Assembly (NCBI GenBank): GCA_026396115.1
Contig: JAPLXL010000001.1
Location: forward strand, 2,761 to 66,760
Origin: Candidatus Nealsonbacteria bacterium
GTDB lineage: Bacteria; Patescibacteriota; Minisyncoccia; Minisyncoccales; RBG-13-42-11
Direction: 5' to 3'
DNA: 64,000 bases
The position numbers were made by a program, and so were the translations under genes. Position 1 is the first letter of the stretch, and each line of letters opens with the position of its first letter. The notes under the pieces are model-generated. The model did no database searches. It was not told the origin of the DNA and saw only the letters and a program-made list of their open reading frames with translations. Positions 309 to 15,215 of this stretch are shown in pieces.

Positions 309-329
309 AAAATATAATCTAATTACTCA

Positions 330-358
330 ATAATAATAAATTACATAAAATCTGTCAA
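330..358 (-). promoter_or_regulatory. Sigma70-like promoter for the repeat-protein gene (TTGACA, 17 nt, TATTAT)
   Basis: Minus-strand reading gives TTGACA (353-358), a 17-nt spacer and TATTAT (330-335), about 22 nt upstream of the ATG at 308. Confidence 0.4.
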
Positions 359-508
359 ATAGCTATACAACTTTCTAGCGTTAAGGATAGAGAAAAAAGT
401 TGTTTTAAGCTTAAACCAAGCAGCTTCTCATTTTGATAGTAATACTCACACTTAATTTTTTTCACTTTAATTTTTAAATATACTCAAAAAAACCTAAAAT
501 GGATTCTT

Positions 509-1615
509 TTAGTTTTTAATCCACCTGAAATCCAACTTTTCTTTTCTTTTTTGAAAACTTTTTTTCCATCTTATTCCCGGCTCTGACAATATTTCGAACA
601 AACGCCAACACTGAGGATCAGGAGCTGAAGCATCTTTAAAATAACTAAAAGACATACATTTAGCGCCACCGCGACATTTTTCATAATAAGAACAAGAAAA
701 ACATATGTTATTGATATTATTTTGGTTTCTTATTTTTTGCAAAGCTTTTGAATTATAATAAATATCTTCAAAAGATTGTTTTAATAAATTACCGGAAAAA
801 AGAGGTAATCTTCGACAAGGATAGACATCACCATTAGGCAAAACACTAAAACTCATATAGCCAGCCGAACAACTTCCTGCTTGATATTGAGGAAAATCTT
901 GAAGTAACATTCCATCTTCACAACCCAAACCAATCGGCCGCCAAAAGTTTTGTTTCGCTTTTAAAATATAATGCCACAATGCCCTAACTTCTTTTGGTTC
1001 TAAAAGAAATTTTTTCATCTTTTTCCCACTCCCCAAAGGAATACACCGCCTTATACCCAAACCAACTTCTAATTCTCTGCTCAGATTAATAACTTCAGGA
1101 ACCTCCTTAAGATTAACCTTGCTTACTGTTATTGAAAAATTTGTATTTATCCCTGCATTTTTTAATAATTTAACTGCTTTAATTGCTTTTTTAAAAACGC
1201 CCTTGCCCCTAATATAATCATTTATCTCTTCCATGCCTTCCAAGCTTATTTGAACATAATCCACCTCTAAATCTTTTAATTTTTTTATATTTTTTTCATC
1301 TAAAAAAGTTCCGTTGGTTAAAATTCCATATTGAAAAAAAGACCGGTTTTGATAACATTTTTCCAAAAAATCAAAAAAATCTTTTCTTATTAAAGGCTCT
1401 CCGCCTGTAAGTGAAATTCTAACAACCTCTTTTGGTAGTTTCCACTTTTTAATTTGACTGATAAAATCTTCTAAGATATCAACAAGTGCTTGAAATGTAA
1501 CTTCTTCTTTTAAAAAAGCAGGGTCTTGATAACAGTGCTTACAACGCAAATTACATCTTTCTGTCATGTGCCACTGTAAGTGAAATGATTTCGGTTTAAA
1601 TTTATTCATAAGCAA
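509..1615 (-). CDS. Radical SAM enzyme with Cys-rich SPASM-like C-terminus (HxsC-like position in the locus)
   Basis: CNLRCKHC (CxxxCxxC) at aa 21-28; GGEPL. The C-terminal Cys cluster is CSAGY..PCRRL..CFSCSYYEKCRGGAKC..PQCW. Its start directly abuts the stop of the upstream rSAM gene. Confidence 0.85.
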   Translation of the reverse strand: MLMNKFKPKSFHLQWHMTERCNLRCKHCYQDPAFLKEEVTFQALVDILEDFISQIKKWKLPKEVVRISLTGGEPLIRKDFFDFLEKCYQNRSFFQYGILTNGTFLDEKNIKKLKDLEVDYVQISLEGMEEINDYIRGKGVFKKAIKAVKLLKNAGINTNFSITVSKVNLKEVPEVINLSRELEVGLGIRRCIPLGSGKKMKKFLLEPKEVRALWHYILKAKQNFWRPIGLGCEDGMLLQDFPQYQAGSCSAGYMSFSVLPNGDVYPCRRLPLFSGNLLKQSFEDIYYNSKALQKIRNQNNINNICFSCSYYEKCRGGAKCMSFSYFKDASAPDPQCWRLFEILSEPGIRWKKSFQKRKEKLDFRWIKN

Positions 1616-3034
1616 TTATTTCTTTCCTGCCCATTTTTTAAAGATTTCTTCCACTTTTTTATCTCGCATTTTAGAAAAAAAGTAATCAAACTGTGCTTTT
1701 TTCATTTTACAGTGCTCAGTATTTTCTATTTGTGGAAAAAGGTTTCCGTAATAAACATAATTTTTAAGAGGACATATACCACAATAAGGTTTATAAACAC
1801 AATAATCACACGATGTATTTTCTAAACAAGAAGCTGCCATCATGACTCTTGTTTTGCTGTTTAAAATAACATCTTTATACTCATTTGTTATGTTTCCTAT
1901 TAAAAAAGTATCATTCTCAAGCATCCTTCCTTCGTCACAAGTATAAATGTTGCCGTCATAATTGTAGAGCATTTGTCCAAGAACTGCTCCACAGGGAGAA
2001 CTTAAATCAGTATATCCAGGATTCTTATTTGTCATAATTCTTTGAAGCATTATCTGAGACTCTCTTTCTTCAAAATATCTTCCATTCTTGTTAATTGAAA
2101 TAATATAATCCATTGATTTTTTCCAAAACCTTATAAATTCTTCAACCGAATAACCAATTTTATCTTGGTGAACCCTCGAGTATCCTAAATAACTTAATTG
2201 TCTTAGATGAATTGATTGAAATTCCCACTTTAAATATTCATCAATAATTTGTTTCGGATATTTGAGAGAATACTTTGAAATGGTTAGTAGCGCTCCAATT
2301 TTTCCATTTTTTTTAATTTTTTTAATCCAATCAGTTGTAGTTTTATAGCTATCACCACCAGGCCAAGGTCTGTTTTTATTATGAATTTTTTTAGGACCAT
2401 CTAATGAAGTGCAAATATTTACTTTATTTTTTGTCAAAAATTCAAGTTTTTTTTCTGTCATTAATGTTAAATTAGAAACCAATTGAATTTTAAGATTTCT
2501 TCCTGTTTTTTGGGATTTCTCTCTAGCATATTCAACAATAAATTTAACCACTGGCCAATTAACCAAAGGTTCACCACCTTGAAATTCAATAGTAATAAAT
2601 GGGTTCGGTGTATCAAAAATAAAATCAACTGTTTTTTTTGCAGTATCTAAACTCATATCATATTTTTTTTCTTTTAACGATCTAGAGCTGGCCTGACAAT
2701 AAATACATCTGAAATTACATCTTAAGGTTACAGCTACTATATGAAGAGACGGGCCCGACTTAAACAAATTTGATTTTCTCGCCCTGTAAGTGCTAATTAA
2801 TTCTTCTTTTTGATAAAAAGGAATATTTTTAAAAAATCCTTTGTCCCTTAACTCTTCATAAGCTTGATTTTCCTTATTTAACTTCCCTTCTAAAAAATTC
2901 TTGAATTGATCAGGGGTTAATATCGCGTAAAAACCAAAATCATTTGTTAATAAATAATTACCGTCTATTTTTCCAAAACGAAAAAATCCAACCTTTCTTG
3001 AATTTATTTTAATATTTTTTAATTCTGAATCCAT
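1616..3034 (-). CDS. Radical SAM enzyme with SPASM-like C-terminus (HxsB-like / anSME-like)
   Basis: CNFRCIYC at aa 106-113; GGEPL. The C-terminal cluster is CGAVLG..YTCDEG..CLENTSCDYCVYKPYCGICP..EHC. Confidence 0.85.
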   Translation of the reverse strand: MDSELKNIKINSRKVGFFRFGKIDGNYLLTNDFGFYAILTPDQFKNFLEGKLNKENQAYEELRDKGFFKNIPFYQKEELISTYRARKSNLFKSGPSLHIVAVTLRCNFRCIYCQASSRSLKEKKYDMSLDTAKKTVDFIFDTPNPFITIEFQGGEPLVNWPVVKFIVEYAREKSQKTGRNLKIQLVSNLTLMTEKKLEFLTKNKVNICTSLDGPKKIHNKNRPWPGGDSYKTTTDWIKKIKKNGKIGALLTISKYSLKYPKQIIDEYLKWEFQSIHLRQLSYLGYSRVHQDKIGYSVEEFIRFWKKSMDYIISINKNGRYFEERESQIMLQRIMTNKNPGYTDLSSPCGAVLGQMLYNYDGNIYTCDEGRMLENDTFLIGNITNEYKDVILNSKTRVMMAASCLENTSCDYCVYKPYCGICPLKNYVYYGNLFPQIENTEHCKMKKAQFDYFFSKMRDKKVEEIFKKWAGKK

Positions 3035-3240
3035 TGTGACTTATTTTTCATCTCACTTAAAATGTAATTACAAAACTCATCTCTAAATATGTTTTTTACT
3101 TCTTCATTAATATTGGTTACTTTTACTACAATATTACGTTTATTTTTCTCAATATTAAATGTCGCCAAACCCACATAAGCTCTAATACTATTTTCTATTG
3201 CTGTTAAGTTATAAAATTTTTTGCTGAAACTTATCATCAT
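3019..3240 (-). CDS. Small protein, HxsD-like (paralogous to the N-terminus of the 213-aa neighbour)
   Basis: 73 aa, overlapping the rSAM start by 16 nt. The pattern FYNLTAIENSIRAY...IVVKV...FRDEFCNYILSEM parallels LYSLEAVYGAAYAF...IQVSL...EFLNELLNFSLRD in the upstream ORF. Confidence 0.5.
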   Translation of the reverse strand: MMISFSKKFYNLTAIENSIRAYVGLATFNIEKNKRNIVVKVTNINEEVKNIFRDEFCNYILSEMKNKSQWIQN

Positions 3241-3253
3241 TTCTTTTTAGTTG

Positions 3254-3895
3254 CTAATTTTTCTTAATATTTTTCTTAGTACTTTTTTTCTTTTTATTTT
3301 TCTTACATTTTTCTTGTTTTTGATCTTCCTTTTTCCATGGAATAACGATTTCCTCAGATTCTTTTCCCCAATCTGGTTCCTTTATAAATTCTTCTTTTTC
3401 TTGTTTTGAACTTTTTTTGTCTAAACATAGATGTTTTTCTTCCCAAGTAACAGCAATTCCTTCAGGATCTTTTTCCCAAGATAAAGCCTTTTCAAATTCC
3501 TCTGTTAAAGTTTCTTTGTCCCAGGCATCAGCTTTGTCTAAAGGTTTTCTTCTTAAAGTTTCTTCCCTTTTCTCCATTAATTTTCCAGAATTAGGCAAAG
3601 CTGAAGCTAATGCTCTGCCAATTATATATTCTCTAATTTTTCTGTTGCTTTTGGAAATTTTATCACGCAAACTGAAATTCAAAAGTTCATTTAAAAATTC
3701 TCCTTTCAAAGTTTCTAAACTTTTTTTTGTCAATTTTTCTTTTCCCTTTAAGCTAACCTGAATTTTAGATTTAAAGCCCTCCTCCAAATAAATATAAGCT
3801 TTATCCAAAAAAGCATAAGCTGCCCCATAAACTGCTTCCAAAGAATAAAGCTTTGGATCTACTGAAATAATTATTTTGTTTTCTTTTTTTTTCAT
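3254..3895 (-). CDS. HxsD-like N-terminal domain fused to a Lys/Glu/Trp-rich C-terminal tail
   Basis: 213 aa. The motif ELLNFSLRD resembles the LLNDYxLRE signature I recall for HxsD. The tail contains two W(D/E/G)K(E/D)...W(E/K)(E/K)K repeats. Confidence 0.5.
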   Translation of the reverse strand: MKKKENKIIISVDPKLYSLEAVYGAAYAFLDKAYIYLEEGFKSKIQVSLKGKEKLTKKSLETLKGEFLNELLNFSLRDKISKSNRKIREYIIGRALASALPNSGKLMEKREETLRRKPLDKADAWDKETLTEEFEKALSWEKDPEGIAVTWEEKHLCLDKKSSKQEKEEFIKEPDWGKESEEIVIPWKKEDQKQEKCKKNKKKKSTKKNIKKN

Positions 3896-3915
3896 AATAT
3901 ATAGGTTGTTAATTT

Positions 3916-4512
3916 TTATGGCATGGGTGAAAATTGATCTCTGGAAAAATTATATTTTTCCTTTAATTCCTGCCAGTCTTTTTCGCTTTTAATTTCTTTA
4001 ATATAACAAGTTTTATTTGGCTGGAAATCAGAATTATCTTCAGGAAGTAAAAGATATCTAATCAAAGCAATTTCAGGCTTTGATTCCGGGTAATCAACTA
4101 AAGACCAAGTTTCATAAACATAAGAAAAATAAATTGGCTTTTCTTTTTCATATAAACAAGCATGAAGTATTGGAGTATAATGAACGCCAATTAGTTCAAC
4201 TTCTGATAAAAAATAACGTTCAATTCCTGATTCTCTTAATCTATGTAGTATTTCCGGAGATACTTGTTTAGTATCTTCTAGTAAACTTGGTTCTATTTCT
4301 AATTCCAATTGCCGAATAATCTTCTCTAAATCTTTTTTCATTTCCAGTCTTTCTTTTTCAATCAAGGACTTAAAATAAAATCCTAAAAAACTAACTACCA
4401 GAATTCCACCCATTATTAAAGCTAAAAGAGTCAATCTATCTTTCTTTAATTTTATTTTTTTGAATTTATCTTCCCATTTCTTAAAAGGAGAAATTTTTCT
4501 TTTTCCCTTCAT
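3916..4512 (-). CDS. Hypothetical membrane-anchored protein
   Basis: 198-aa ORF with one N-terminal TM segment (LTLLALIMGGILVVSFLGFYF) and a coiled-coil-like stretch. Confidence 0.5.
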   Translation of the reverse strand: MKGKRKISPFKKWEDKFKKIKLKKDRLTLLALIMGGILVVSFLGFYFKSLIEKERLEMKKDLEKIIRQLELEIEPSLLEDTKQVSPEILHRLRESGIERYFLSEVELIGVHYTPILHACLYEKEKPIYFSYVYETWSLVDYPESKPEIALIRYLLLPEDNSDFQPNKTCYIKEIKSEKDWQELKEKYNFSRDQFSPMP

Positions 4513-4515
4513 ATA

Positions 4516-4989
4516 TTAAATTCCGCAACAATAAAGTCTCATCTGATACCATCTACTAGTCCCGGAGCCGCACAAGCTACCTGTAGTATAACGGTCAACG
4601 CCTGCTACAAACTTACCATTCGCACAAGTCTGGCTAGCATCACAAGTATAAGCTGTCCAAGCACAACCATCCCAAGTATTATTCGGAGCATTAATATTGC
4701 CTGTTGTGTATACATTCCCACTAATGTCTAATTTTTGACTAGGATTCGCCGTCCCGATGCCGACGTTGCCGCTATCTCGTGCCAGAATTGTTCCAAATCT
4801 TGAAATAAAAGCACCCACTGACAGTCCTCCTGATTTTATTTGGTCTACGGAACCAACATTAAGAGGAGCCGGAACATTACCTCCTGGAGGAGTGGTCGTT
4901 GGTTCTGTCCAGGCTAAAACCAAATAACCGACCAGAAAACTCATTGCCAAAACCCCTAAAATAAGGGCTATTGATTTTGTTTTTTGCAT
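4516..4989 (-). CDS. Secreted Cys-rich protein with AWTEP-type leader (paralogous leader to 8312-9781)
   Basis: The N-terminus MQKTKSIALILGVLAMSFLVGYLVLAWTEPTTTPPGGNVPAPLNVGS is about 80 percent identical at DNA level to the first ~150 nt of gene 8312-9781. It shares the NVGIGT motif and has 8 Cys in the C-terminal third. Confidence 0.6.
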   Translation of the reverse strand: MQKTKSIALILGVLAMSFLVGYLVLAWTEPTTTPPGGNVPAPLNVGSVDQIKSGGLSVGAFISRFGTILARDSGNVGIGTANPSQKLDISGNVYTTGNINAPNNTWDGCAWTAYTCDASQTCANGKFVAGVDRYTTGSLCGSGTSRWYQMRLYCCGI

Positions 4990-5007
4990 ATATTTATAAT
5001 ATCTTTA

Positions 5008-5066
5008 GGCGAAGAGAACTCTGTTCTCTTCTTCACCTTCGTCCCGCTATCGCGGGACTCGGTAAT
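5008..5066 (+). repeat. Family-1 palindromic mini-element, short form
   Basis: GGCGAAGAGAAC-TCT-GTTCTCTTC TTCACCTTCG TCCCGC-TAT-CGCGGGA CTCGGTAAT. Confidence 0.85.
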
Positions 5067-5089
5067 TAATTTTTAATCTCGACTTTTTG

Positions 5090-5404
5090 TCAAGGCGTAA
5101 GTTGTTTTAATACTCCTTCCAGTTCTTTTTGCTCTTCTTCGGTCATTGGCTTCGGCTGGGTCGGAGTTAATTGTTTTAAAAGCTCCTCTTGTTCTCTTTT
5201 GTCTTCTTCGGTTAAGGGTTCTGGTTCTGCCGGGGTTAATCTTTCTAAAACTTCCTCTATGGTTTCTTCTTTTTCTGGGGCAACCTCTTTTTCAGAAGAA
5301 ATTTTCCCTTTTTGAAAAAGAGCCACAGAGATAATGATGCTGAAGACCAAAACTACTGCTATTGAAATTCCGATAATAATGTTTTTGTTAATTTTTGGCA
5401 TCAT
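5090..5404 (-). CDS. Small membrane-anchored Glu/Pro-rich protein with MMPKINKNI leader
   Basis: 104 aa. The N-terminus MMPKINKNIIIGISIAVVLVF is shared with 9844-10353 and 6989-7621. There is an internal repeat LTPAEPEP / LTPTQPKP / LKQLTP. Confidence 0.55.
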   Translation of the reverse strand: MMPKINKNIIIGISIAVVLVFSIIISVALFQKGKISSEKEVAPEKEETIEEVLERLTPAEPEPLTEEDKREQEELLKQLTPTQPKPMTEEEQKELEGVLKQLTP

Positions 5405-5527
5405 ACATTTTAAATTCTAATTTCTAATTTCTGCCTTGTTAGAAAGAGAAAAACAAGAAAATACAAAATTGTCTTTTTTGATAAAGTTATATTCATTACA
5501 CCGGGAAGCCATCCAGCAGGATTCTAA

Positions 5528-6838
5528 TTAAATTTTCAAAAACCCATCAAATAAATTAACAATCTCGGCGAAAAGATTCTTGAACCAAGTAGTCGGAGGC
5601 ACCTCTTGGTATTCAGGAAGAGGAAGGGTAATAGCCACTTGGCGAGTAGTATCACAACTGCCAGCCGGAGTAAGACTATTATCAGTTATGGTTAGTCTGA
5701 CTGTTTTTGGTCCAGTAGTAGTATAAGTAGTGGTTGCATTACCCTTTGTTGTGGAAATCTGGCCATTACCAAAATCCCATAAATATGAAATAGACCCACC
5801 AGTAGAACAACTATATTCAGTATTACCAGGGGAAGAATAACATTTAGAATTATCAGTAAAAGTTACTACCTCTCCAATTGCTGGGTTTTGAGGAGAAAGA
5901 GTGAAATCGGAATAAGGATAAGAGTGGCTGACAGTGGTAAATGATTCTGGAGGAGGGGTATTGTTTTGGTAGACGATCCAATCAGTAGAAGTAGTGTCTT
6001 GGCTATCCCAGACTTTTAGTCGCCAATAATAAGTTGTATTCCAGGAAAGAGTTGGATAAGGTGATTGGATAACAAATGCTTGAGATTGACCAGTTGAACC
6101 AGTTATTTTGCCAGTATCCAAGACTAGAGGGGAGAAACCAGAAATAGCGGCTACTTGAATCTGATAGGCAGATTGACTATCTCCTGGGTCAGAAAACTGC
6201 CATTTCAACCGAACCAGAGGGTAACCGGTAATTCCACAATAATCTGTTGAGTTTGGAGGATCGACCGAAAGATTAATAGCTGAAGGCGGTTGGTTGAAAA
6301 TGAAGGAAGTTATTACTTTGTAGTTTGAAGTGCCGCAAACCCCTTGATTGCTACAATTAAAACTAATCCAGCCAATAACCATATCTGACCAAGCCCAGCT
6401 GGAAAATTCGCCATTCTCAGTATTAATATAAACTCCGTAATTTGAACCTTTCAATTTTATCCAACCATCCCAGCCGTCGCCATAATTCAATGCCCTTGCC
6501 CAGCCGGAAACTTCGCCGCTGCCAGTAGTATCCACTTTTGTCGAATAATTGGGTAATGTGGGATAAGGACCGGCTGGCGCAAAGTGAATCCAGCCAATAT
6601 GCTCTGACCAGGCATAACCTGAAAAAGTTCCATCGCTATTTATATTTACACCGTAATTCCCTGTCCCACAAGTTCCCTGATTTGTACAATTAAAACTAAT
6701 CCAACCAATATTCTCTGACCAAGCCCAGCCAGAAACATTATCTCCTGACCCCGCTTGGACTTCTCCGGTAAAAAGAAAACTAAAAACTGCAAATAATGTT
6801 ATTGTAATCGCTAAAAATTTTTTGTTCATAAAAAACAC
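5528..6838 (-). CDS. Secreted repeat protein with C-terminal PKD-like domain
   Basis: Signal peptide. Four copies of the motif SGWAWSENIGWISFNC / SGYAWSEHIGWIHF / SSWAWSDMVIGWISFNC. The C-terminal VVTFTDNS...YLWDFGNG...TYTTTGPKTVRLTITDN looks like a PKD domain. Confidence 0.7.
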   Translation of the reverse strand: MFFMNKKFLAITITLFAVFSFLFTGEVQAGSGDNVSGWAWSENIGWISFNCTNQGTCGTGNYGVNINSDGTFSGYAWSEHIGWIHFAPAGPYPTLPNYSTKVDTTGSGEVSGWARALNYGDGWDGWIKLKGSNYGVYINTENGEFSSWAWSDMVIGWISFNCSNQGVCGTSNYKVITSFIFNQPPSAINLSVDPPNSTDYCGITGYPLVRLKWQFSDPGDSQSAYQIQVAAISGFSPLVLDTGKITGSTGQSQAFVIQSPYPTLSWNTTYYWRLKVWDSQDTTSTDWIVYQNNTPPPESFTTVSHSYPYSDFTLSPQNPAIGEVVTFTDNSKCYSSPGNTEYSCSTGGSISYLWDFGNGQISTTKGNATTTYTTTGPKTVRLTITDNSLTPAGSCDTTRQVAITLPLPEYQEVPPTTWFKNLFAEIVNLFDGFLKI

Positions 6839-6988
6839 GGTGAATTAATTTTTCTTGTTTCATTTTACCACAAGTGAGCAAAATGTCGCCTGTGGAAAAC
6901 TAAGCAATGTTTGGAGGCCCGACCTACAAACATTTAATTTCCGAAGAGTCAAACCCGTGTGAGTGTTACAAGTACCCATTGTCCCTTG

Positions 6989-7621
6989 TCATCGAAGCTT
7001 CAGCTCTTCTTCTGCTGTCTGTAGATTCTGCCTAGCTAAATTAAAATCAACATCCAAAGAGAGGGCTTTTTTATATTCAATAATAGCCTCCTCTATTCTG
7101 TCCTGGTCGTGAAAAGCATTACCTAAATCATTATAAGCAGAAGCAAAATTTGGACTTATAGCTATAGCCCTCTGATAATATTCTATTGCTTTATCTACAT
7201 TTCCCTGATCAAAGTAAATATTGCCCAAATTGTCTAAACTAACTACAGATTGAGGGTCTAAGTTAAGCACTATCTCATATTCTTTGATTGCCTCATCAAA
7301 CAGTCCCATAGTGTAATAAGTTCCAGCCAAATCAAAATGGACTTCAATGTTGTCTTTATCAATTTCAAGTATTCTCTTCAATACCTCCACTGCCTTATCG
7401 CGCTCACCTAATGTATTATAGAGAGTGGCTAGTTTATTAAGTACTGCAATGGAATTATCACTTTTTTTGTATTCTTTGATTGCCTCATCAAATTGAAATT
7501 CTGTTTCATAAATTATTCCCTTAATCAAGTGTCGGTTGATATTTATTTGCCACTGAGTATAACCAGCTATTAAGAAAATAGCTACTCCTCCTAATAAGAT
7601 GTTTTTGTTAATTTTTGGCAC
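6989..7621 (-). CDS. TPR-repeat protein with MPKINKNI membrane anchor (GTG start)
   Basis: Repeated 34-aa units (AIKEYKK..., AVEVLKRILEIDKDN, AIKEYEIVLNLDPQS, AIEYYQRAIAISPNF, AIIEYKKALSLDVDF). Confidence 0.8.
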   Translation of the reverse strand: MPKINKNILLGGVAIFLIAGYTQWQININRHLIKGIIYETEFQFDEAIKEYKKSDNSIAVLNKLATLYNTLGERDKAVEVLKRILEIDKDNIEVHFDLAGTYYTMGLFDEAIKEYEIVLNLDPQSVVSLDNLGNIYFDQGNVDKAIEYYQRAIAISPNFASAYNDLGNAFHDQDRIEEAIIEYKKALSLDVDFNLARQNLQTAEEELKLR

Positions 7622-7654
7622 TGGCTTTATTATTTTTTATTTTCTTTAAGATCT

Positions 7655-8209
7655 TTAATAGGGAAGATGAATCCCACCTTCCACAATTTGAATTTCTTTG
7701 GCAGTAATTTCTTTTTTGCCTTTGATGTTCTCTTCAGAATTTACCATAATATAATCTCCTGTTTTAATATCTTCAAAGCTTAAAAGTACTTTTTCGAAGG
7801 GTTCCAAAGGCATTTCTTCCGACACTTTTGGCGCTACTATTTCAGTCTGGAAAATCTCTGTTTCCTCGATCACATTTACCTTAATATTTCGTCTTTCGTA
7901 ATCTTTTCCTTCTGGTAAAGGGAATTGGCTCACTCGAATTTGGGCTTCCATTACTAAGAATTTATCTCCTACTTCGGTTACGGTTCCATCAATACTATAA
8001 ACTTCTTCCTGCAGAGGAGGATAAACCGTTTCTAACTGGGATTTCAGTAAATCAATCTCTTCTTGGGCTTGGCTAATTTTTACTTGTTGGTTTGCTTTTT
8101 CAGAGATTTTACCCATTCCAAAACCTATTATAAGAGAGATGATAGAGACTATAATTATAGAGACTATAATTAATGATACAATAATCCTCTTTTTCATGTT
8201 TTTATTCAT
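7655..8209 (-). CDS. Hypothetical membrane-anchored protein (paralogous C-terminal region to 9844-10353)
   Basis: The track ORF starts at 8266. I prefer MNKNMKKRIIV (8209, or 8197) because the upstream 40 nt is a copy of the non-coding region at 10670-10711. Confidence 0.55.
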   Translation of the reverse strand: MNKNMKKRIIVSLIIVSIIIVSIISLIIGFGMGKISEKANQQVKISQAQEEIDLLKSQLETVYPPLQEEVYSIDGTVTEVGDKFLVMEAQIRVSQFPLPEGKDYERRNIKVNVIEETEIFQTEIVAPKVSEEMPLEPFEKVLLSFEDIKTGDYIMVNSEENIKGKKEITAKEIQIVEGGIHLPY

Positions 8210-8311
8210 GATTAATTTAAAATAGACCTTTATTGATTTTCTTTGATTTCTTGCGTTTCCAACCAATCAATGCTTATAAACTGAATAAGAATCAAACAAG
8301 CATCCACCCCG

Positions 8312-9781
8312 TTAAAGTTTCATTATGAAGGCAAGTTGAATAAAAGCAGGTCTGTTGTCAATACTAGCTCCGCTACCTGCGCTGTCTGTAGTCCCACTAT
8401 GAGAGTGTGCGCCGCATGTACTCATTGAAGAGGTGTGTGAGTGATCCCCAGCCGAGGCTGCGGAGGCAAGTGATGGGGATGTGGACTTCGCTGCAAAGTA
8501 TTTGGCGGTGCTAGCTGCAGAGCAGCACCCTACGCCGTTACTAGAGCATGAGTACGGCGTCCCGTAGGCGTACACGGATGCTATACTATGGGTATGGGCG
8601 CCTGCACTGTTTATGGTAATTGTGTGTACGTGACAACCGCTAGTATCTGTTGTGAAAGTGTGTGTATGAGATGGCAGCTGACTAGCCGTTAGCGTGTATG
8701 AGTTTGCCCCGCCTGTTGCACCCAGGGTAGCAGAATTTATTGTGCCCATTACAAACCTGTCGCTAAGATTTGGTGTACCGTTATTACCGTTGCATAATGC
8801 CCAACCGGCAAGAGAACCGGTGCCTAACCCTGTGCCATCAAAATTCCATGCCCCCGAGTACATAATTATACCACCTGTTGGAGTACCGCCTGCAGGCGCA
8901 GGAGTCTGCCAGATTGCCAAACCAGCAGCATCTGAAGTAAGAACTTTGCCGGCGGCCGGAGAGCCACCGGTAATTTTAACCTGACCGGCAACTTCCAACT
9001 TGGCTCCGGGCGCAGCCGTCCCGATGCCGACGTTAGTGCCACTATCATAGATTTGAGAATTTCCAATTGTTGTACCGGCTGTAAATTTGACAAGATAGTT
9101 TGTTGTTCCACTCCCACCGATTCCAGCTGGTGGAACAGAACAAGTCAAGGTAGAACCAACCGCTGTCACATACTGACCAGAAGAACAGGCAGAAGGAAAA
9201 GAGGTTAATCTTGCCCAGGGAACAGAACCACCTTGTAAGGTTCCCGTCCATCTAACGTCTCCTGAAATGTCTAGTTTGTATCCCGGTGCCGCCGTCCCGA
9301 TGCCGACGTTAGTTCCATTGTTATAAATAACACTATTAGCTACCCAATTAGTGCCGTCATTCCTTAAAGTTTGGCCAGAAGATCCTGAGGGCAAAGTACC
9401 TGTAATTGTTTGCCAAGAAGCTAAACCTGCTGCGTCAGAAATTAAAGCCTTGCCTACACCTGGGATGCCTCCAGTAATCTTTATCTGCCCAGCAACTTCT
9501 AATTTGGCTCCCGGACTCGTCGTCCCGATGCCGACGTTGCCAGCTAAAACTGTTGTTCCAGCTGGATTAACATAATAGGCATTATTATCTGAATCATAAA
9601 AAATCGGAAAGGTTAAACTGCCAGTTTTGGTTTGGGCAGTGGAACCAACATTTATTGGAGCAGGAACATTACCCCCGGTTGGAGCGACACCGGGTTCTGT
9701 CCAAGCAAAAACCAGATAGCCAACCAAAAAACTCATTGTTAAAACCCCAAAAATTAGGGCTAAAGATTTTGTTTTTGACAT
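8312..9781 (-). CDS. Secreted repeat protein with AWTEP leader and C-terminal phage tail-collar-like domain
   Basis: There are internal ~45-aa repeats (NVGIGT.PGAKLEVAGQ.KITGG.P..GK.L.SDAAGLA.WQT). The C-terminal GWALCNGNNGTPNLSDRFVMG...YTLTASQLPSHTHTF matches my recollection of the tail-collar/MdpB signature. Confidence 0.75.
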   Translation of the reverse strand: MSKTKSLALIFGVLTMSFLVGYLVFAWTEPGVAPTGGNVPAPINVGSTAQTKTGSLTFPIFYDSDNNAYYVNPAGTTVLAGNVGIGTTSPGAKLEVAGQIKITGGIPGVGKALISDAAGLASWQTITGTLPSGSSGQTLRNDGTNWVANSVIYNNGTNVGIGTAAPGYKLDISGDVRWTGTLQGGSVPWARLTSFPSACSSGQYVTAVGSTLTCSVPPAGIGGSGTTNYLVKFTAGTTIGNSQIYDSGTNVGIGTAAPGAKLEVAGQVKITGGSPAAGKVLTSDAAGLAIWQTPAPAGGTPTGGIIMYSGAWNFDGTGLGTGSLAGWALCNGNNGTPNLSDRFVMGTINSATLGATGGANSYTLTASQLPSHTHTFTTDTSGCHVHTITINSAGAHTHSIASVYAYGTPYSCSSNGVGCCSAASTAKYFAAKSTSPSLASAASAGDHSHTSSMSTCGAHSHSGTTDSAGSGASIDNRPAFIQLAFIMKL

Positions 9782-9843
9782 ATTTTAACTAAATAGCTTG
9801 CTCCTAACCTTATTAAACAAAGCTAGAGATTTACTATTTAGCA

Positions 9844-10353
9844 TTAAAGCTTATTAATATAATCGACTTTAAATTGAGTTTTTCCTCGAATATTCTCTGG
9901 CGAGGAAATATTAACTTTTTCTCCTATTTTTAAATGTTTTAAACCTTCCATTCCTTGATATTGCGCTTTTTGGCCAGTTTCAAAGGTAATGGTTTCATCG
10001 GTAAAAATTAAAGTTAATTCTCGCGGTTTTTGATCGGTAAAATTAGAGCCTGACCCTTGAACTATTAATCTATCGGTTTTAATTTCAATAATCGTTCCCT
10101 CTGTATTAAGAATAACCGGTGGTAATTCTGGAATTTGCACTCCTTCTGGAATTTCGGTTTTTTCAATCTCGCCGATTTCTCCCGGAGCCAGAATTTCTTC
10201 GATGGTTTGAACTTCAACTGGAACCTCGGCCGGAACCTCAACTTGAGCAATTTTGTCTTTTTGCCAGAAAGCATAAATTATAATACTGATGAAAATTAAA
10301 ATCACCGCTATTACGATTCCGATAATGATGTTTTTATTAACTTTTGGCATCAT
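9844..10353 (-). CDS. Hypothetical membrane-anchored protein with MMPKVNKNI leader
   Basis: 169 aa; the first ~40 nt are near-identical to the starts of 5090-5404 and 6989-7621. Confidence 0.6.
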   Translation of the reverse strand: MMPKVNKNIIIGIVIAVILIFISIIIYAFWQKDKIAQVEVPAEVPVEVQTIEEILAPGEIGEIEKTEIPEGVQIPELPPVILNTEGTIIEIKTDRLIVQGSGSNFTDQKPRELTLIFTDETITFETGQKAQYQGMEGLKHLKIGEKVNISSPENIRGKTQFKVDYINKL

Positions 10354-10373
10354 AGATTTTAAATCTTAATTTC

Positions 10374-10643
10374 TCATTTTTCTACTGGTACTTCTTCTTC
10401 CAAACAATGCGTGCCTATTATACTGATTTGCTTTTCAACGCCGGTAACAGTAACCGGTTCGCATTTCTCAGCTTCAGTAATTAAAACATTTATTGTATTT
10501 ATTCTGCCTTGCTCATAAGCGTTTAATATCTGGACGTTTTTGAAATCGCTCCAGATGTCCCAAGCGATATAGACTACGGAAAAAACTATCCAAATGAAAA
10601 CAAGAAAATACAAAATTGTCTTTTTTGATAAAGTCATCTCCAT
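10374..10643 (-). CDS. Small membrane protein
   Basis: 89 aa with one TM segment. A remnant of its 5' end is duplicated at 5449-5487. Confidence 0.5.
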   Translation of the reverse strand: MEMTLSKKTILYFLVFIWIVFSVVYIAWDIWSDFKNVQILNAYEQGRINTINVLITEAEKCEPVTVTGVEKQISIIGTHCLEEEVPVEK

Positions 10644-10799
10644 TGTTTTGTTTGTTTAATGTAAATCCTATTTTTATTTATGATTAATTTAAAATACGAC
10701 CTTTATTCAATTATAACAAACTATGTCAGTCAAATAAAGTTGAATTACATTACGCTGGGAAGCCATCTCGCAGGACTCTTTTTACTATAAAATATCTCA

Positions 10800-10831
10800 A
10801 AAAATAAAAAACTCTCCAATAAACGGAGAGT
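10800..10831 (-). terminator. Intrinsic terminator downstream of clpP
   Basis: Minus-strand hairpin CTCTCC-N7-GGAGAG followed by a T-run. Confidence 0.65.
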
Positions 10832-10920
10832 TATTATCAACGTAAAAACTCATAAAAATTCTCATTTTCCATAGTGCATAAATTCCTATAGTTCTTGTCT
10901 GCTCGGTTTAAGGACAATTT

Positions 10921-11505
10921 TCATTCTTTTGGCTTAATAACCTGGTCAATCAAGCCGTATTCCTTGGCTTCTTCGGCAGATAAATAAAAATCCCTGTCAG
11001 TGTCTCTTTCAATTTTCTCTAAGGACTGACCGGTGTGCTTTTCCAGAATTTTGTTTAGTTTTTCTTTGATTTTAATAATCTGTTTGGCAGTAATTTCAAT
11101 TTCTACTGCTTCTCCGGTAACTCCGCCTGCTACCTGGTGCAGCAAAATCTGAGAATTGGGGAGAGCGAAACGTTTTCCTTTTTTCCCGGCTGCCAGCAAG
11201 GTAGCTCCCATGGAAGCTGCCAAACCAAAACAAACAGTAGAAATATCAGGCTTGACATACTGCATGGTATCGTAAATTGCCATGCCAGCAGTAACCGAGC
11301 CGCCGGGAGTATTAATGTAAAGTTGAATGTCTTTGTGGGAATCTTTTGAAGCCAAAAATAACATTTGAGCAATAATAGAATTAGCTACAGGGTCGGTAAT
11401 AGGTCCTGCCAAAAATATAATTCTGTCTTTTAAAAGCCGGGAATAAATATCATAAGCCCTCTCTCCATATTGAGATTTTTCTATGACCGTGGGAATTAGG
11501 TTCAT
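10921..11505 (-). CDS. clpP: ATP-dependent Clp protease proteolytic subunit
   Basis: [32 protein letters not shown]..., the GLAASMGA active-site Ser context, and a typical 194-aa length. Confidence 0.95.
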
Positions 11506-11555
11506 AATCTAATTATACCAAAAATCCGATGAAAAGCGAAACAACAATACTCAAA

Positions 11556-12830
11556 TTAGTCCTGAGTTGTTTTAGTCGTCTTTTTCTTTTTGATTTCTTT
11601 TTCAACAGGCGAAGAGGACTTCGTCCTCTTCTTCACCTTCGCTTCCATAGATGGAAGCTCGGTTTCTAATTTTTCTCCCTCCTCTTCTTTTTTATCTTTT
11701 TCGTCCTCTCTTGGAGATCTGATGTCTATTTTCCAACCGGTTAGTTTTGCCGCCAATCTTACATTCTGACCATCTTTGCCAATAGCCAAAGACAATTGAT
11801 CTTCGGAAATAATAACTTGGGCTTTGTTTTTGGGCATTATTTTTACCTCTAAGGACTTGGCAGGCGACAAGGAATTGGCAATATACTTTTCTGGCTCCGG
11901 AGAATATGCGACAATATCAATTTTTTCTCCTGCCAACTCATTAATTACAGCCATAACCCTCGTTCCTTTTTGGCCAATCATGCTGCCAATAGGGTCAACT
12001 CCTTCAATGTCGGAGCATACCGCAATTTTAGACCTGGAACCTGGCTCTCTGGCGATTGACTTTATCTGAACTTGACCTGAAGAAACTTCCGGCACCTCCA
12101 ACTCAAAAAGTTTTGAAATTAATTTGGGGTAAGCCCGAGATAAAATTATGGCCGGCCCTCTTGGCGTTTCTTCAACTTTTAAAAGATAAACCTTGAGCCG
12201 TTGGCCCGGCCGATAAAATTCTCCCGGCACCTGTTCTTCTTTTGGCAAGACGCCAAGGGTTTTGCCAATATCTAAAAAAACATTTCTTCCTTCAATTCTT
12301 TGAACAATTCCGGAAATTATTTCTCCTTCCTTGGCCTTGTATTCATCCAAAATACTTTCTTTTTCTGCTTCTCTAATTCTTTGTAAAATAACTTGTTTTG
12401 CGGTCTGGGCAGCAATCCGACCATAATCTATTTTTGTTTCCAAGGGAATTTCTAATTCTTGAGCAACCTTAATCTTTGGGTTTATTTTTTTTGCTTCTTT
12501 GAGCATAATATGCTTTTCAGGATTAAAACGAACTTTTTTACCGGCCGAAACTTCGCCGGCCACGGGCTTTTCTCCCACCTTCGTTTCCATTTGTGAAAGC
12601 TCGGTTTCAGAATAAATCATGTCTTTATCGATAATTAATTTTACTTGCCAAAACTTAACATCGCCTGATTCCGGATCAAGTTTAGCTTTGATTATCTGTC
12701 CTTTTTTTCCGTAATCTTTTTTATAGGCAGCGGCAATCGCCATTTCAATGGTTCCCAAAACCTTTTCCGTAGAAATACCTTTTTCTTCGGCAATCTGAGC
12801 AATGGCTGACATGAAGTTTTTTATATCCAT
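11556..12830 (-). CDS. nusA: Transcription termination/antitermination factor NusA; C-terminal tail partly encoded by a repeat element
   Basis: The N-terminal NusA signature, S1 domain and two KH-like regions are recognisable. The last ~40 aa overlap family-1 element 11608-11665. Confidence 0.92.
   Translation of the reverse strand: MDIKNFMSAIAQIAEEKGISTEKVLGTIEMAIAAAYKKDYGKKGQIIKAKLDPESGDVKFWQVKLIIDKDMIYSETELSQMETKVGEKPVAGEVSAGKKVRFNPEKHIMLKEAKKINPKIKVAQELEIPLETKIDYGRIAAQTAKQVILQRIREAEKESILDEYKAKEGEIISGIVQRIEGRNVFLDIGKTLGVLPKEEQVPGEFYRPGQRLKVYLLKVEETPRGPAIILSRAYPKLISKLFELEVPEVSSGQVQIKSIAREPGSRSKIAVCSDIEGVDPIGSMIGQKGTRVMAVINELAGEKIDIVAYSPEPEKYIANSLSPAKSLEVKIMPKNKAQVIISEDQLSLAIGKDGQNVRLAAKLTGWKIDIRSPREDEKDKKEEEGEKLETELPSMEAKVKKRTKSSSPVEKEIKKKKTTKTTQD
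11608..11665 (+). repeat. Family-1 mini-element inside the 3' end of nusA
   Basis: GGCGAAGAGGAC-TTC-GTCCTCTTC TTCACCTTCG CTTCCAT-AGA-TGGAAG CTCGGTTTC. Confidence 0.85.
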
Positions 12831-12924
12831 AATTTTAATAAAAGTGTCCGCACTCCACGGACTATGTTAATTATAACAAAACAAAACTATCCGTCAATGA
12901 AATGAAAAACCGCAAAGAGTGCAT

Positions 12925-13320
12925 CTAAAAAACAGAGTTTTTAAAATGCCGAATTTTAGCCAGCTTACTCTTGAAATCTATTTTAATGGCAATAACATCA
13001 ATCTGCCACTTTGAATCCAAGGGAATTTTCTTTTCCATTAACCAAAATTCAGCCGTCTTGATTATTTTCCTTTGTTTTAAAAAATTAACTTTTTGTTCCG
13101 GCCTTATCAACGAGAACTGTTCTCGTTGATTTTGGGTTTGGGTTTTTACTTCAATAAAAGAAATTATGTTATCTTTTTTTGTCACAAGGTCAACTTCTCC
13201 TCTTTTGGGGCCGGAATTGAAATTGGTTGAATAATTCTTATCTAAAATTTGATATCCTTTCTTCATCAAATAATTTTCGGCAATTTTCTCTCCCCAAATT
13301 CCTGTTTGTTTTGAATCCAT
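12925..13320 (-). CDS. YraN-family (UPF0102) endonuclease-like protein
   Basis: GIWGEKIAENYLMKKGYQILDKNY...GEVDLV...ISFIEVKT. The start is moved to MDSKQ (13320) because the longer track ORF runs through tRNA-Ala. Confidence 0.8.
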   Translation of the reverse strand: MDSKQTGIWGEKIAENYLMKKGYQILDKNYSTNFNSGPKRGEVDLVTKKDNIISFIEVKTQTQNQREQFSLIRPEQKVNFLKQRKIIKTAEFWLMEKKIPLDSKWQIDVIAIKIDFKSKLAKIRHFKNSVF

Positions 13321-13322
13321 AG

Positions 13323-13394
13323 TGGACCCAGAGGGAATTGAACCCTCAGTCTCCTCAATGCGAATGAGGTGTTTTGCCGTTAAACTATAGGCCC
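13323..13394 (-). tRNA. tRNA-Ala (anticodon CGC)
   Basis: Hand-folded cloverleaf: acceptor GGGCCTA/TGGGTCC with G3:U70, D-stem GTTT/AAAC, anticodon loop TTCGCAT, T-arm GAGGG-TTCAATT-CCCTC. No encoded CCA. Confidence 0.9.
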
Positions 13395-13413
13395 TTTTTA
13401 CCTCCAGCTTAAT

Positions 13414-13484
13414 TCGGGCTGCTGAGATTTGCACTCAGGCTAAATCCTCCCGAAGGACTCGTGCTACTATTACACTACAGCCCG
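13414..13484 (-). tRNA. tRNA-Pro (anticodon CGG)
   Basis: Hand-folded: acceptor CGGGCTG/CAGCCCG, D-stem GTGT/GCAC, anticodon stem AGTCC/GGATT with loop TTCGGGA, T-arm CTGAG-TGCAAAT-CTCAG. No encoded CCA. Confidence 0.85.
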
Positions 13485-15026: not shown

Positions 15027-15095
15027 ATTATCATATTATCTCAAAAACTTGTTTTTTTCAATGCGTCTGTTAAAATAATAAAATACAAACGAAAA

Positions 15096-15135
15096 GCCCC
15101 CGTGGTCTAATGGATAAGGTGCCCCGCCCTTTTAC
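15096..15135 (+). pseudogene. 5' half of a tRNA (reads as Lys, anticodon UUU) truncated immediately after the anticodon loop
   Basis: GCCCCCG TG GTCT AATGGATA AGGT .. CCGCC CTTTTAC, then the 5' end of tRNA-Arg begins. No 3' anticodon stem, T-arm or acceptor strand follows locally. Confidence 0.55.
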
Positions 15136-15207
15136 GTCCCCTTAGCTTAATGGATAAAGTGCTGGTCTTCGGAACCAGCGATAGAGGTTCGACTCCTCTA
15201 GGGGACA
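15136..15207 (+). tRNA. tRNA-Arg (anticodon UCG)
   Basis: Hand-folded: acceptor GTCCCCT/AGGGGAC, anticodon stem CTGGT/ACCAG with loop CTTCGGA, T-arm AGAGG-TTCGACT-CCTCT. Confidence 0.9.
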
Positions 15208-15215
15208 CACAAAAA

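Follow-up and report, generated by a model that had tools for sequence, protein, structure and literature searches.

The window analyzed here, a 64,000-nucleotide stretch of a Candidatus Nealsonbacteria contig, holds at positions 3916 to 10643 a minus-strand cluster of nine open reading frames (ORFs) and one gene remnant; all features given below lie on that strand. A preliminary description had spoken of ten surface or secreted proteins. Proteins that are exported or membrane bound do cluster here, and all nine ORFs have an N-terminal hydrophobic segment, but the count comes down to nine genes and a remnant. The first gene of the unit, g89 (10374 to 10643), is an ORF for a small single-pass membrane protein (hydrophobic residues 9 to 27) whose orthologue in locus L002, in the same position, is 59% identical. 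Because a terminator-like hairpin with a T-run (10810 to 10832; a consensus match only) lies downstream of clpP, and g89 comes after it, the cluster would be a separate transcription unit.

Behind g89 come g169 (9844 to 10353), which has a leader-2 membrane anchor (MMPKVNKNI) joined by a Glu/Pro-rich linker to a small, beta-rich domain at the C terminus that g203 shares; the fiber gene g489 (8312 to 9781); g203 (7655 to 8266, with a probable ATG start at 8209), which crosses the membrane once and carries a small domain at its C terminus; and g210 (6989 to 7621), a TPR protein (Pfam TPR_1, 4.7e-33) with a short N-terminal hydrophobic segment. These are followed by g436 (5528 to 6838, probable start 6829), by a g89 remnant (5410 to 5496) in which translation and alignment reveal 28 codons, the first 16 intact and then an internal deletion, and by g104 (5090 to 5404), in which Glu-rich xxLxxLTP repeats come after a leader-2 membrane anchor. 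The short fiber gene g157 (4516 to 4989) and g198 (3916 to 4512) complete the cluster. The latter, judged from its ORF and hydrophobic segment to be a single-pass membrane protein, begins 3 nt after g157 and ends 20 nt before hxsD, and may be part of either the fiber unit or the Hxs cassette; its orthologue in L266 likewise comes behind the g157 orthologue. Homologues of g203 adjoin fiber genes of the AWTEP family (see below) in L007, L013, and L014. We regard the small membrane proteins g89, g169, g104, g203, and g198, together with g210, as putative accessory envelope factors.

The adhesin-like appearance ascribed to the cargo of these proteins was borne out, as were the TPR repeats of g210 and the PKD and WAWSxxIGWIxF repeats, both of which belong to g436. 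This protein has a signal peptide, four WAWS repeats (approximately 6305 to 6751, with invariant Trp at 37, 74, 110, and 147), confirmed Ig (Rha78A_N-like) and PKD domains, and an amphipathic helix at the C terminus (5534 to 5593); an NCBI protein (P0154) from a Candidatus Nealsonbacteria metagenome-assembled genome (MAG) matches it at 100% identity. A search with the WAWS domain returned no structural neighbor suggestive of function.

Fiber proteins and their leader

The two fiber proteins belong to what we call the AWTEP family, which carries leader 1 and is named for its A↓WTEP motif. In g489, a signal peptide (9704 to 9781) and a conserved mature N-terminal motif (9614 to 9703) precede three NVGIGT fiber repeats (N codons at 9538, 9310, and 9034) and a tail-fiber-like tip with HxH motifs (8312 to 8962). 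The shorter g157 has the same order of signal peptide (4912 to 4989), conserved motif (4822 to 4911), and one NVGIGT repeat (N codon at 4767), ending in a Cys-rich C-terminal knob (4516 to 4668); similar Cys-rich ends (...CCGK) are found on paralogues in L022 and L023. The repeats behind leader 1 follow the consensus NVGIGT..P..KLxVxG. The label "tail-collar" for g489 holds only in part: no Pfam Collar match was obtained at E values up to 0.1, but its C terminus matches PHROG tail-fiber families (1.2e-19) and entries in 185 phage records, and the protein matches a solved tail fiber (9qgo, 1.3e-6). It also matches Bd2133, a member of the MAT family (8e-4). Elsewhere in the AWTEP family the tips include Peptidase_S74 (8 cases), Dockerin (9 cases), Gp34_trimer, Collagen, Collar, and H_lectin.

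DNA identity comparisons and a repeat search confirmed that two N-terminal leaders each recur on proteins of the cluster. For leader 1, the DNA identity between g157 and g489 is 83% in the first 90 nt and 78% when 150 nt are compared, and the repeat search paired 4829 to 4994 with 9621 to 9786 (77%). It had been proposed that the leader heads otherwise different proteins; on their alignment (42% over 166 amino acids, E 1.7e-33, with the fiber repeat and a Cys-containing module in common), g157 and g489 are paralogues rather than unrelated cargo. Their shared starts are a product of gene duplication inside the AWTEP family. Nor is leader 1 a generic anchor. Its profile matched 5,663 representative proteins at E values of ≤1e-3 (861 at ≤1e-10), the match was N terminal in all 150 among the matches listed (protein lengths, 62 to 1131 amino acids), and the genomic loci found with it are nearly all from Patescibacteria, with labels of Nealsonbacteria, Parcubacteria, and related Paceibacteria groups. 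AWTEP is a very large, uncurated Patescibacteria family, of which we found no description in the curated libraries or literature searched.

The residue before the Trp is Ala in 146 of 153 sequences and that at −3 is Val, Ala, or Ile in 139 of 153; with this pattern, leader 1 looks like a Sec signal peptide of the ordinary kind, which signal peptidase I probably cleaves at the Ala-Trp bond. Distant members retain ASA↓W, VSA↓W, or ALA↓QNSW, and in one locus a signal peptidase I gene is embedded among six AWTEP paralogues. The uncharged run of ca. 21 residues is also long enough for an uncleaved signal anchor. The conserved mature N terminus has the form WTEPTxxPPGGNVPAPxNVGxxxQxKxGxL.

Leader 2 and a block duplication

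In the case of leader 2, g104 and g169 show DNA identities of 90% (30 nt) and 87% (45 nt) and a protein identity of 56% over 55 amino acids, g104 and g210 have 22 identical nucleotides in common (5379 to 5400 and 7599 to 7620), and the first 8 residues of g210 match the leader. The leader-2 profile gave 29 matches, and leader 2 is the N terminus of one narrow family; g169 also resembles g203 (E 6.6e-6) and has the homologues P0301 and P0302. The similarity between positions 5297 to 5430 and 10246 to 10379 (76%) reaches into intergenic DNA, and the g89 remnant matches the start of g89 itself (5450 to 5497 and 10597 to 10644, 94%). Since the g104/g169 similarity takes in the upstream intergenic DNA and the g89 start, it reflects block duplication, and leader 2 does not qualify as the mobile leader cassette for which it had been taken. 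The duplicated block would have comprised g89, a leader-2 gene, and a fiber gene; the second copy would then have lost most of g89, and the fiber genes would have diverged by exchange of their C-terminal modules. On this evidence the recurring leaders are best explained by descent.

Discussion

We consider it probable, from sequence comparison, that the region is a surface-fiber locus of Candidatus Nealsonbacteria, tiny symbionts within the Patescibacteria (CPR), encoding modular host-contact fibers with a shared start and different tips. The AWTEP fibers would be exported via their ordinary Sec signal peptide, leaving the conserved proline-rich segment as the new N terminus, with beta-helical fiber repeats and then a variable tip behind it. 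This tip is tail-fiber/collar-like with HxH motifs in g489 and a Cys-rich knob in g157, and relatives can have a dockerin, collagen, lectin, or S74 chaperone domain in its place. Presumably the fibers are trimeric, and the conserved N-terminal segment may anchor their base in the envelope through a shared partner; our best guess for it, made from gene neighborhood, is the co-conserved g436 or the type IV pilus machinery, beside which the unit is often found. The tips would bind the surface of the host cell carrying the epibiont. Candidatus Nealsonbacteria are epibionts that attach firmly to Methanothrix (bioRxiv 10.1101/2022.04.20.488981).

The gene neighborhood speaks for this reading and also bears on a possible, though unlikely, alternative, in which the AWTEP fibers and the WAWS protein are not independent fibers but accessories of type IV pili, such as tip or base adhesins. 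Such adhesins would take the part of PilY1/PilC, which are non-pilin adhesins with genes in the minor-pilin operons of type IV pili, or of the shufflon adhesin R64 PilV. Across Patescibacteria we found a recurring order of a small transmembrane (TM) protein, one or more AWTEP genes, and a WAWS-repeat/Ig/PKD protein: in small and phylogenetically non-independent samples, 10 of 20 leader-centered loci had a WAWS gene close to the AWTEP gene, 7 of 9 WAWS-centered loci had an AWTEP gene close to the WAWS gene, and type IV pilus genes were no more than 10 kb away in 5 of the 20 and in 5 of the 9, respectively. The unit sits inside a pilus operon in L016 (pilC, AWTEP-like, WAWS, pilD) and L260 (pilC, pilins, pilD, AWTEP ... 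WAWS, minor pilins) and directly behind pilD or minor pilins in L006, L003, and L012; L262 has a peptidase A24-like gene, a small TM protein, WAWS, and minor pilins. Three family members also carry the PilV Shufflon_N domain. Such proximity may, however, merely reflect the clustering of envelope genes, and about half or more of the loci, the window included, have no pilus ATPase or platform gene nearby (none was found among the window ORFs scanned, where the sole pilus gene seen was a pilin ca. 17 kb from the cluster). Moreover, the prepilin motif G↓F(T/M)LxE was not found in leader 1.

Somewhat less likely still is that shuffling places two mobile leader cassettes on unrelated cargo genes while recent gene conversion within the genome keeps a 17-mer identical. 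The string GTCCCGATGCCGACGTT (coding strand AACGTCGGCATCGGGAC, encoding NVGIGT) does occur exactly four times in the window, at 4751, 9018, 9294, and 9522, and matched in 0 of 100 shuffles; the count of four perfect copies stood, but the earlier coordinates were off by 1 to 9 nt. One copy lies in g157 (4751 to 4767) and three lie in g489 (9018 to 9034, 9294 to 9310, and 9522 to 9538). The four agree at six synonymous sites, whereas invariant flanking residues use differing codons, as conversion would have it. Yet gene conversion normally needs longer homology than a 17-nt tract. The 17-mer also occurs in fiber genes of L002, L004, L006, L260, L261, and L264; of 16 motif copies taken from other Patescibacteria loci, 11 have it or its 12-nt core, as do at least 120 viral contigs, which argues against local conversion alone. 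As for shuffling, the mosaic C termini are real. Among the close metagenome contigs compared for fiber differences (L264 against the window and L266), L264 has g203 and g210 proteins 96% identical to those of the window, yet its fiber differs in position and tip, so the cluster is not invariant; in this fiber, which starts like g157, a segment resembling g489 (GKVLTSDAAGLASWQTITGT) is combined with collagen-like repeats and a Cys knob of another kind. What is exchanged, though, is the tip, while the leader and first ca. 100 amino acids are conserved and vertically related, and the leader-2 recurrence is part of the block duplication described above.

That the tail-fiber genes are left over from a prophage or tailocin is highly improbable: the g489 tip and fiber repeats are homologous to phage tail fibers and nucleotide similarity to viral contigs spans 40 to 60 nt around the motif, but no other product of phage type, be it capsid, terminase, tail tube, or sheath, was found (the nine cluster proteins and HxsD against Pfam/NCBIfam; five against PHROGs), the chromosomal position (NusA ... 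ClpP, cluster, RNase Y) is kept in several relatives, and a search of 2.9 million viral contigs found no AWTEP Sec leader with the WTEP motif.

The surface fibers that we favor resemble several known systems. As with PilY1/PilC and R64 PilV, variable adhesin genes adjoin pilD and minor pilin genes in several AWTEP loci, and Shufflon_N is common to R64 PilV and the three family members mentioned; unlike the PilV shufflon, the AWTEP system has no prepilin leader, no inverted repeats (the four 17-mers are all direct), and no adjacent recombinase, and g436 showed no sequence or fold similarity to PilY1. The C-terminal 216 amino acids of g489 align at 28 to 43% identity with phage tail fibers bearing collar-like, HxH tips (PDB 9qgo, PHROG 8469, Burkholderia Bcep22, Ralstonia UAM5, Pseudomonas Lyrsu01, and other annotated tail fibers), with GWxxCxGxxGTPxLxxRF, the HxH motifs, and a terminal ...AFIMKL in common. 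In contrast to these, g489 is a chromosomal gene without other phage genes as neighbors and has the Sec signal peptide and AWTEP segment missing from viral contigs.

Pam pili, surface filaments specific to CPR bacteria, are exported via Sec and have accessory proteins anchored in the membrane, and a tail-fiber-like protein is consistently co-located with the pam operon; their pilins have an Ig fold, are linked to one another through donor-strand exchange, and occur mainly in Saccharimonadia and Microgenomatia (bioRxiv 10.64898/2026.03.03.709456). The AWTEP system would be of the same general type (CPR specific, Sec exported, with membrane-anchored accessory proteins). It differs in being built on fiber repeats, in its loci in Nealsonbacteria, Parcubacteria, and related Paceibacteria groups, and in that no chaperone-usher-like genes were found at the cluster.

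MAT (mosaic adhesive trimer) fibers of Bdellovibrio bacteriovorus, such as Bd2133 and Bd3182 (PDB 8ond), have been described (PMC10769870). The AWTEP proteins differ from these in phylum and envelope, Patescibacteria being taken to lack an outer membrane (as stated for another CPR lineage; bioRxiv 10.64898/2026.03.03.709456), in length (157 to 489 amino acids in the cluster, against ca. 1,000), and in belonging to a conserved unit that also includes small membrane proteins and a WAWS-repeat protein. Like MAT fibers, they are cell encoded and phage-tail-fiber-like, in a bacterium that lives on other microbes; they have beta-helix repeats with a motif of the NVGIGT..P..KL.V.G type; and they come as numerous paralogues that resemble one another in the N-terminal part but have had their C-terminal tips exchanged, some ending in an S74 chaperone.

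Results

Most likely, this is a cluster for surface fibres of the tail-fibre type, exported through Sec, and for their envelope accessory proteins; judged from sequence, these would serve in host contact. Nine closely packed ORFs occupy positions 3916 to 10643; the preliminary description had been right to place a cluster on the minus strand but had counted ten proteins. Named by protein length and taken in the order of transcription, the ORFs are g89 (10374-10643), g169 (9844-10353), g489 (8312-9781), g203 (7655-8266), g210 (6989-7621), g436 (5528-6838), g104 (5090-5404), g157 (4516-4989), and g198 (3916-4512), and all nine products begin with a hydrophobic segment. nusA and clpP lie upstream, and the terminator-like hairpin that follows clpP (10810-10832) was the sole convincing terminator-like site; promoter-like sites (31, versus a shuffled expectation of 23.9 [SD, 4.9]) were not clearly in excess, and an Rfam scan of positions 1 to 16000 returned tRNAs only. 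The g436 product has a 100% identical counterpart at NCBI in a Candidatus Nealsonbacteria MAG, which places the window in the Patescibacteria (CPR). Searching the assembly index for an exact copy of g489 gave no match.

Directly downstream, also on the minus strand, lies a His-Xaa-Ser (Hxs) radical-SAM peptide-maturation cassette (1-3895) comprising HxsD (3254-3895), an HxsD-like protein (3019-3240), HxsB (1616-3034; 498.7 bits), a second radical SAM/SPASM protein (509-1615; no HxsC model was among the 25 best models listed), and an HxsA-like precursor (1-308) whose (HSQ)n tail runs past the window edge. Because the gaps between g157 and g198 (3 nt) and between g198 and hxsD (20 nt) are so short, g198 and hxsD may be cotranscribed with g157. 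The idea that cluster proteins are themselves HxsA-type substrates was rejected: the HxH motifs of g489 are of the tail-fibre type, and the actual HxsA-like precursor has an ORF of its own, outside the nine of the cluster. Elsewhere in the window we noted a TraG/VirB4-like ATPase of type IV secretion (32718-34595), dnaA and dnaN (36810-39507; probably the origin region), a large serine recombinase (44864-46543), and an Eco57I-like restriction-modification methylase (53001-54767).

Two N-terminal modules do recur within the cluster, as had been described. Leader 1, carried by g157 and g489, is 83% identical between the two genes over 90 nt and 78% identical over 150 nt. A profile built from five leaders, searched alone against 1.84 billion representative proteins, matched 5,663 proteins at an E value of ≤1e-3 and 861 at ≤1e-10, and the match was N-terminal in all 150 proteins listed (of the 5,663), whose lengths range from 62 to 1,131 residues. 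The exhaustive profile search was required, a word-indexed search with the leader alone returning only 3 proteins. A genome scan placed the motif in 20 Patescibacteria loci, labeled Nealsonbacteria, Giovannonibacteria, Wildermuthbacteria, Kaiserbacteria, Paceibacterota, Minisyncoccia, and, for several TPA assemblies, Saccharibacteria; an additional match, in a Bifidobacteriaceae assembly, covers 22 residues only and is doubtful. We refer to the proteins with this leader as the AWTEP family. The leader profile found no relative among 2.9 million viral contigs, the N-terminal module has no match among Pfam or NCBIfam models, and literature text searches returned no relevant paper naming the AWTEP module, AWSENIGW, or NVGIGT.

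The consensus of leader 1, taken from 153 AWTEP members, has a basic n-region followed by an uncharged run of about 21 residues and a putative cleavage site with Ala at position −1 in 146 of the 153 and Val, Ala, or Ile at position −3 in 139, in keeping with the criteria for Sec export and signal peptidase I. After the site, it reads W-T-E-P-(T/S)-x-x-P-P-G-G-N-V-P-A-P-(I/L)-N-V-G-x-x-x-Q-x-K-x-G-x-L. Distant members do not keep the sequence of the hydrophobic core, but their site is canonical (ASA↓W, VSA↓W, AFA↓W, and ALA↓QNSW). We infer that leader 1 would be an ordinary Sec signal peptide, cleaved by signal peptidase I, joined to a conserved mature N terminus. C-terminal sorting by an LPXTG/sortase or PEP-CTERM/exosortase system was rejected, as NCBIfam lists no such model for the cluster proteins; the resemblance of g210 to PrsT, the TPR protein of the XrtA/PEP-CTERM system, is sub-threshold and TPR-driven (66.9 bits against an NCBIfam cut-off of 312), and the C-terminal amphipathic helix of g436 has no basic tail. 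A type IV prepilin (class III) signal was likewise rejected: neither g157 nor g489 nor any of the 153 members has its Gly and F/M-T-L-x-E motif, which does occur in the true type IV pilin encoded elsewhere in the window (27156-27731).

The preliminary description had treated the proteins behind leader 1 as otherwise different, which proved incorrect: a 166-residue alignment of g157 with g489 shows 42% identity (E value, 1.7e-33), and the two have a fibre repeat in common and match again where the Cys-rich part of g157 aligns with residues 150 to 229 of g489 (E value, 6.5e-10). Over its last ~216 residues, g489 is clearly the tip of a phage tail fibre, which matches phrog_8469 (1.2e-19 over residues 324 to 488), PDB entry 9qgo (residues 274 to 489; E value, 1.3e-6), and 185 phage records. 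The earlier tail-collar assignment therefore survives as a tail-fibre tip but not as Pfam Collar (PF07484), to which g489 has no match with E values up to 0.1 and which matches 1 of 116 AWTEP members (1.2e-4). Domains found downstream in these 116 members include Dockerin (9), Peptidase_S74 (8; an intramolecular chaperone), EF-hand (4), Shufflon_N (3), Gp34_trimer, Collagen, Collar, and H-lectin. In the alignment of the same 116 proteins (A4), the Shufflon_N matches are to the PilV constant region (best E value, 9.9e-16), and the dockerin matches are to type I repeats. The AWTEP proteins thus constitute a fibre set with one conserved base and many tips.

Leader 2, (M)MPK(I/V)NKNI plus a transmembrane segment, is 87 to 90% identical between g104 and g169 over the first 30 to 45 nt; g210 has 22 nucleotides identical to those of g104, its likeness being limited to the first eight residues. 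The g104 family is narrow (29 matches of ~100 aa, all beginning M(M)PKINKNIIIG), and g169-type proteins have their first ~55 residues in common with g104 and carry an extra small C-terminal domain related to that of g203. The similarity of g104 and g169 reaches 26 nt upstream of the start codon (5297-5430 versus 10246-10379), and the first 16 codons of g89 are copied upstream of g104 (5450-5497 versus 10597-10644; 94%), where an internal deletion after codon 16 leaves a 28-codon ORF. Since both this intergenic DNA and the start of g89 were copied, a block consisting of g89, a leader-2 gene, and a fibre gene was duplicated, and the window holds one full unit (g89, g169, g489, g203, g210, and g436) and one partial unit (the g89 remnant, g104, g157, and perhaps g198). 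Micro-conversion of the g210 start by g104 was considered, but no clear sign of a recent event was seen: the orthologue in a close relative (L264) carries almost these same 22 nt, the two differing at 3 positions in about 100 nt.

The WAWSxxIGWIxF repeats claimed for the cluster lie in g436 and number four, with invariant Trp residues at positions 37, 74, 110, and 147, and the PKD and TPR domains reported for the cluster were confirmed, along with an Ig domain. AlphaFold modeled g436 confidently (pLDDT of 87 for the whole protein; pLDDT of 87 and pTM of 0.80 for the repeat domain alone), and the predicted order is signal peptide, all-beta Trp-rich domain, Ig, PKD, and C-terminal amphipathic helix. 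The Trp-rich domain (residues about 27 to 175; window positions 6305-6751) is predicted to be compact and built of four ~37-residue repeats. This WAWS family has 3,020 matches at an E value of ≤1e-5; no Pfam or NCBIfam model covers the domain, and Foldseek searches of PDB and BFVD returned no neighbour at an E value below 0.1.

A g436-type WAWS protein occurred within the fetched flanks in 10 of the 20 leader-centred Patescibacteria loci; its gene there usually directly follows the fibre gene(s), which a small single-pass membrane protein usually precedes. AWTEP genes were nearby in 7 of 9 WAWS-centred loci. Between one (L260, L261, L264, and L268) and six (L023 and L269) AWTEP paralogues are present per locus, many with g157-like Cys-rich ends, and several relatives have the unit at the chromosomal position it occupies here, after NusA and ClpP and before RNase Y. 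Type IV pilus genes (Pfam) lie within 10 kb in 5 of the 20 leader-centred and 5 of the 9 WAWS-centred loci. The order is pilC, AWTEP-like gene, WAWS gene, and pilD in L016; pilC, pilins, pilD, AWTEP gene, and then WAWS gene and minor pilins in L260; and peptidase A24-like gene, small transmembrane protein, WAWS gene, and minor pilins in L262, and the unit follows pilD or minor pilins in L006, L003, and L012. A pilus locus takes up only a small part of a genome of roughly 1 Mb, so this proximity is far above chance, in samples that are small and made up of loci related to one another. The only pilus gene found in the window is the pilin, about 17 kb away. In a Pacebacteria locus (L023:11334-11729), a 131-aa protein matching T4SS_pilin (PF18895) is encoded directly after the WAWS gene.

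Comparison with close relatives showed that the cluster is variable; the invariance that the preliminary description had named as a ground for refutation was not seen. In L266, the gene order is the same, with g104 and g157 orthologues 98 to 99% identical to ours and a g436 orthologue at 93%. In L264, g203 and g210 are 96% identical at the protein level, whereas the WAWS protein (79%), g104 (72%), and the fibre start (65%) are much less so, and the g104-like gene and its fibre gene stand before the WAWS gene, not after it as they do in the window. The 287-aa fibre of L264 is a mosaic: it starts like g157, shares a second repeat and a GKVLTSDAAGLASWQTITGT segment with g489, and has collagen-like GAT repeats and a Cys knob of a different kind. 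The divergence of the WAWS protein, g104, and the fibre start reflects either more rapid evolution of exposed parts or their replacement by recombination.

A 17-nt string encoding NVGIGT, AACGTCGGCATCGGGAC, is present in four exact copies (4751-4767, 9018-9034, 9294-9310, and 9522-9538), as noted previously at slightly different coordinates, with no match in any shuffle. The copies are identical at six synonymous sites, whereas the invariant residues that flank them (P, K, L, V/I, and G) have codons that differ from copy to copy; for a genome of 35% G+C such as this one, the 17-mer codons are rare ones, their joint probability being 2.3e-4 for the given amino acids. Gene conversion had been proposed to explain this identity, but local conversion alone fails to do so, because the string is also found in other Patescibacteria loci and in viral contigs. 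Its 12-nt core is present in 11 of 16 motif copies of other Patescibacteria loci, and the exact string is present in L002, L004, L006, L260, L261, and L264, in L266 and L267 (both with near-identical g157 copies), and in at least 120 viral contigs (L024 to L143), where the similarity to g489 spans 40 to 60 nt. Its synonymous sites are conserved across genomes of 31 to 59% G+C. A codon choice universal to phage fibres was rejected, since none of 116 NVGIGT..P motifs in an unbiased viral sample was an exact copy. This leaves either a constraint at the nucleotide level or a crossover point common to a widely exchanged fibre-repeat subfamily.

Discussion

The preliminary description had proposed that the cluster diversifies by cassette shuffling. 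Modular exchange stands, at the tip end, but leader swapping does not: leader recurrence reflects family membership and block duplication, and the fibres diversify by gain and loss of paralogues and by exchange of tips. A shufflon or other invertible switch was rejected: it does not fit four 17-mers that are all in direct orientation, and the nearest recombinase found, the large serine enzyme, is ~35 kb off. A diversity-generating retroelement was also considered, but identity among the repeats of the region is just 63 to 77%, and those ORFs of the window that were scanned included no reverse transcriptase.

Host recognition by Patescibacteria is largely unexplained, and type IV pili are the main suspects. 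Judging by this locus, uncurated and hypervariable fibre proteins number in the thousands; they have one conserved N-terminal module in common, come with a conserved partner protein, and are often encoded beside pilus genes. It is suggested that the Trp-rich WAWS domain may bind the proline-rich N-terminal segment of the fibres. One bolder proposal, to which we would give little weight, is that WTEPTxxPPGGNVPAPxNVG acts as a docking signal that, once the signal peptide is removed, plugs interchangeable fibres into a WAWS base; that the unit is an undescribed, Patescibacteria-specific type IV pilus accessory that sets host range; and that the 17-mer is the crossover point for module swaps. If the fibres are host-recognition adhesins, they would supply sequence markers from which host range might be predicted in metagenomes, and the few cultivable systems would gain concrete targets. 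According to the abstracts of published reports, the Patescibacteria cultivated so far are all epibionts, and one Nealsonbacteria lineage has been described as firmly attached to Methanothrix filaments (bioRxiv 10.1101/2022.04.20.488981).

Parts of this arrangement recall known systems. In one locus (L269:7208-7762), a Peptidase_S26 gene (signal peptidase I; 7.8e-23) lies between clpP and the WAWS gene, amid six AWTEP paralogues, and may encode a dedicated processing enzyme; a signal peptidase gene among fibre paralogues brings to mind SipW, the dedicated signal peptidase of the Bacillus tapA-sipW-tasA fibre operon. As a crossover point, the 17-mer would resemble in principle the conserved motifs through which T-even tail-fibre genes swap modules. 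A close parallel lies with the mosaic adhesive trimer (MAT) fibres of Bdellovibrio. The GNVGIGT..P..KLxVxG repeat matches the beta-helix of the MAT fibre Bd2133 (PDB 8ond; g489 residues 79 to 133; E value, 8.1e-4), with weaker matches for the other g489 repeats. MAT proteins form chimeric trimeric fibres on the cell surface, alike in their N-terminal parts but with tips that have been exchanged (PMC10769870); the AWTEP family, too, consists of paralogues in which the N-terminal part is conserved and the C-terminal tips are swapped. We regard the fibres as kin of MAT-like and phage-like fibre adhesins; what is new is the N-terminal module, with no curated model or paper in our searches, the partner domain, for which the libraries searched gave no structural neighbour, and a suggestive connection with type IV pili. 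Should they prove to be host-recognition adhesins, they would be the Patescibacteria counterpart of the Bdellovibrio MAT fibres.
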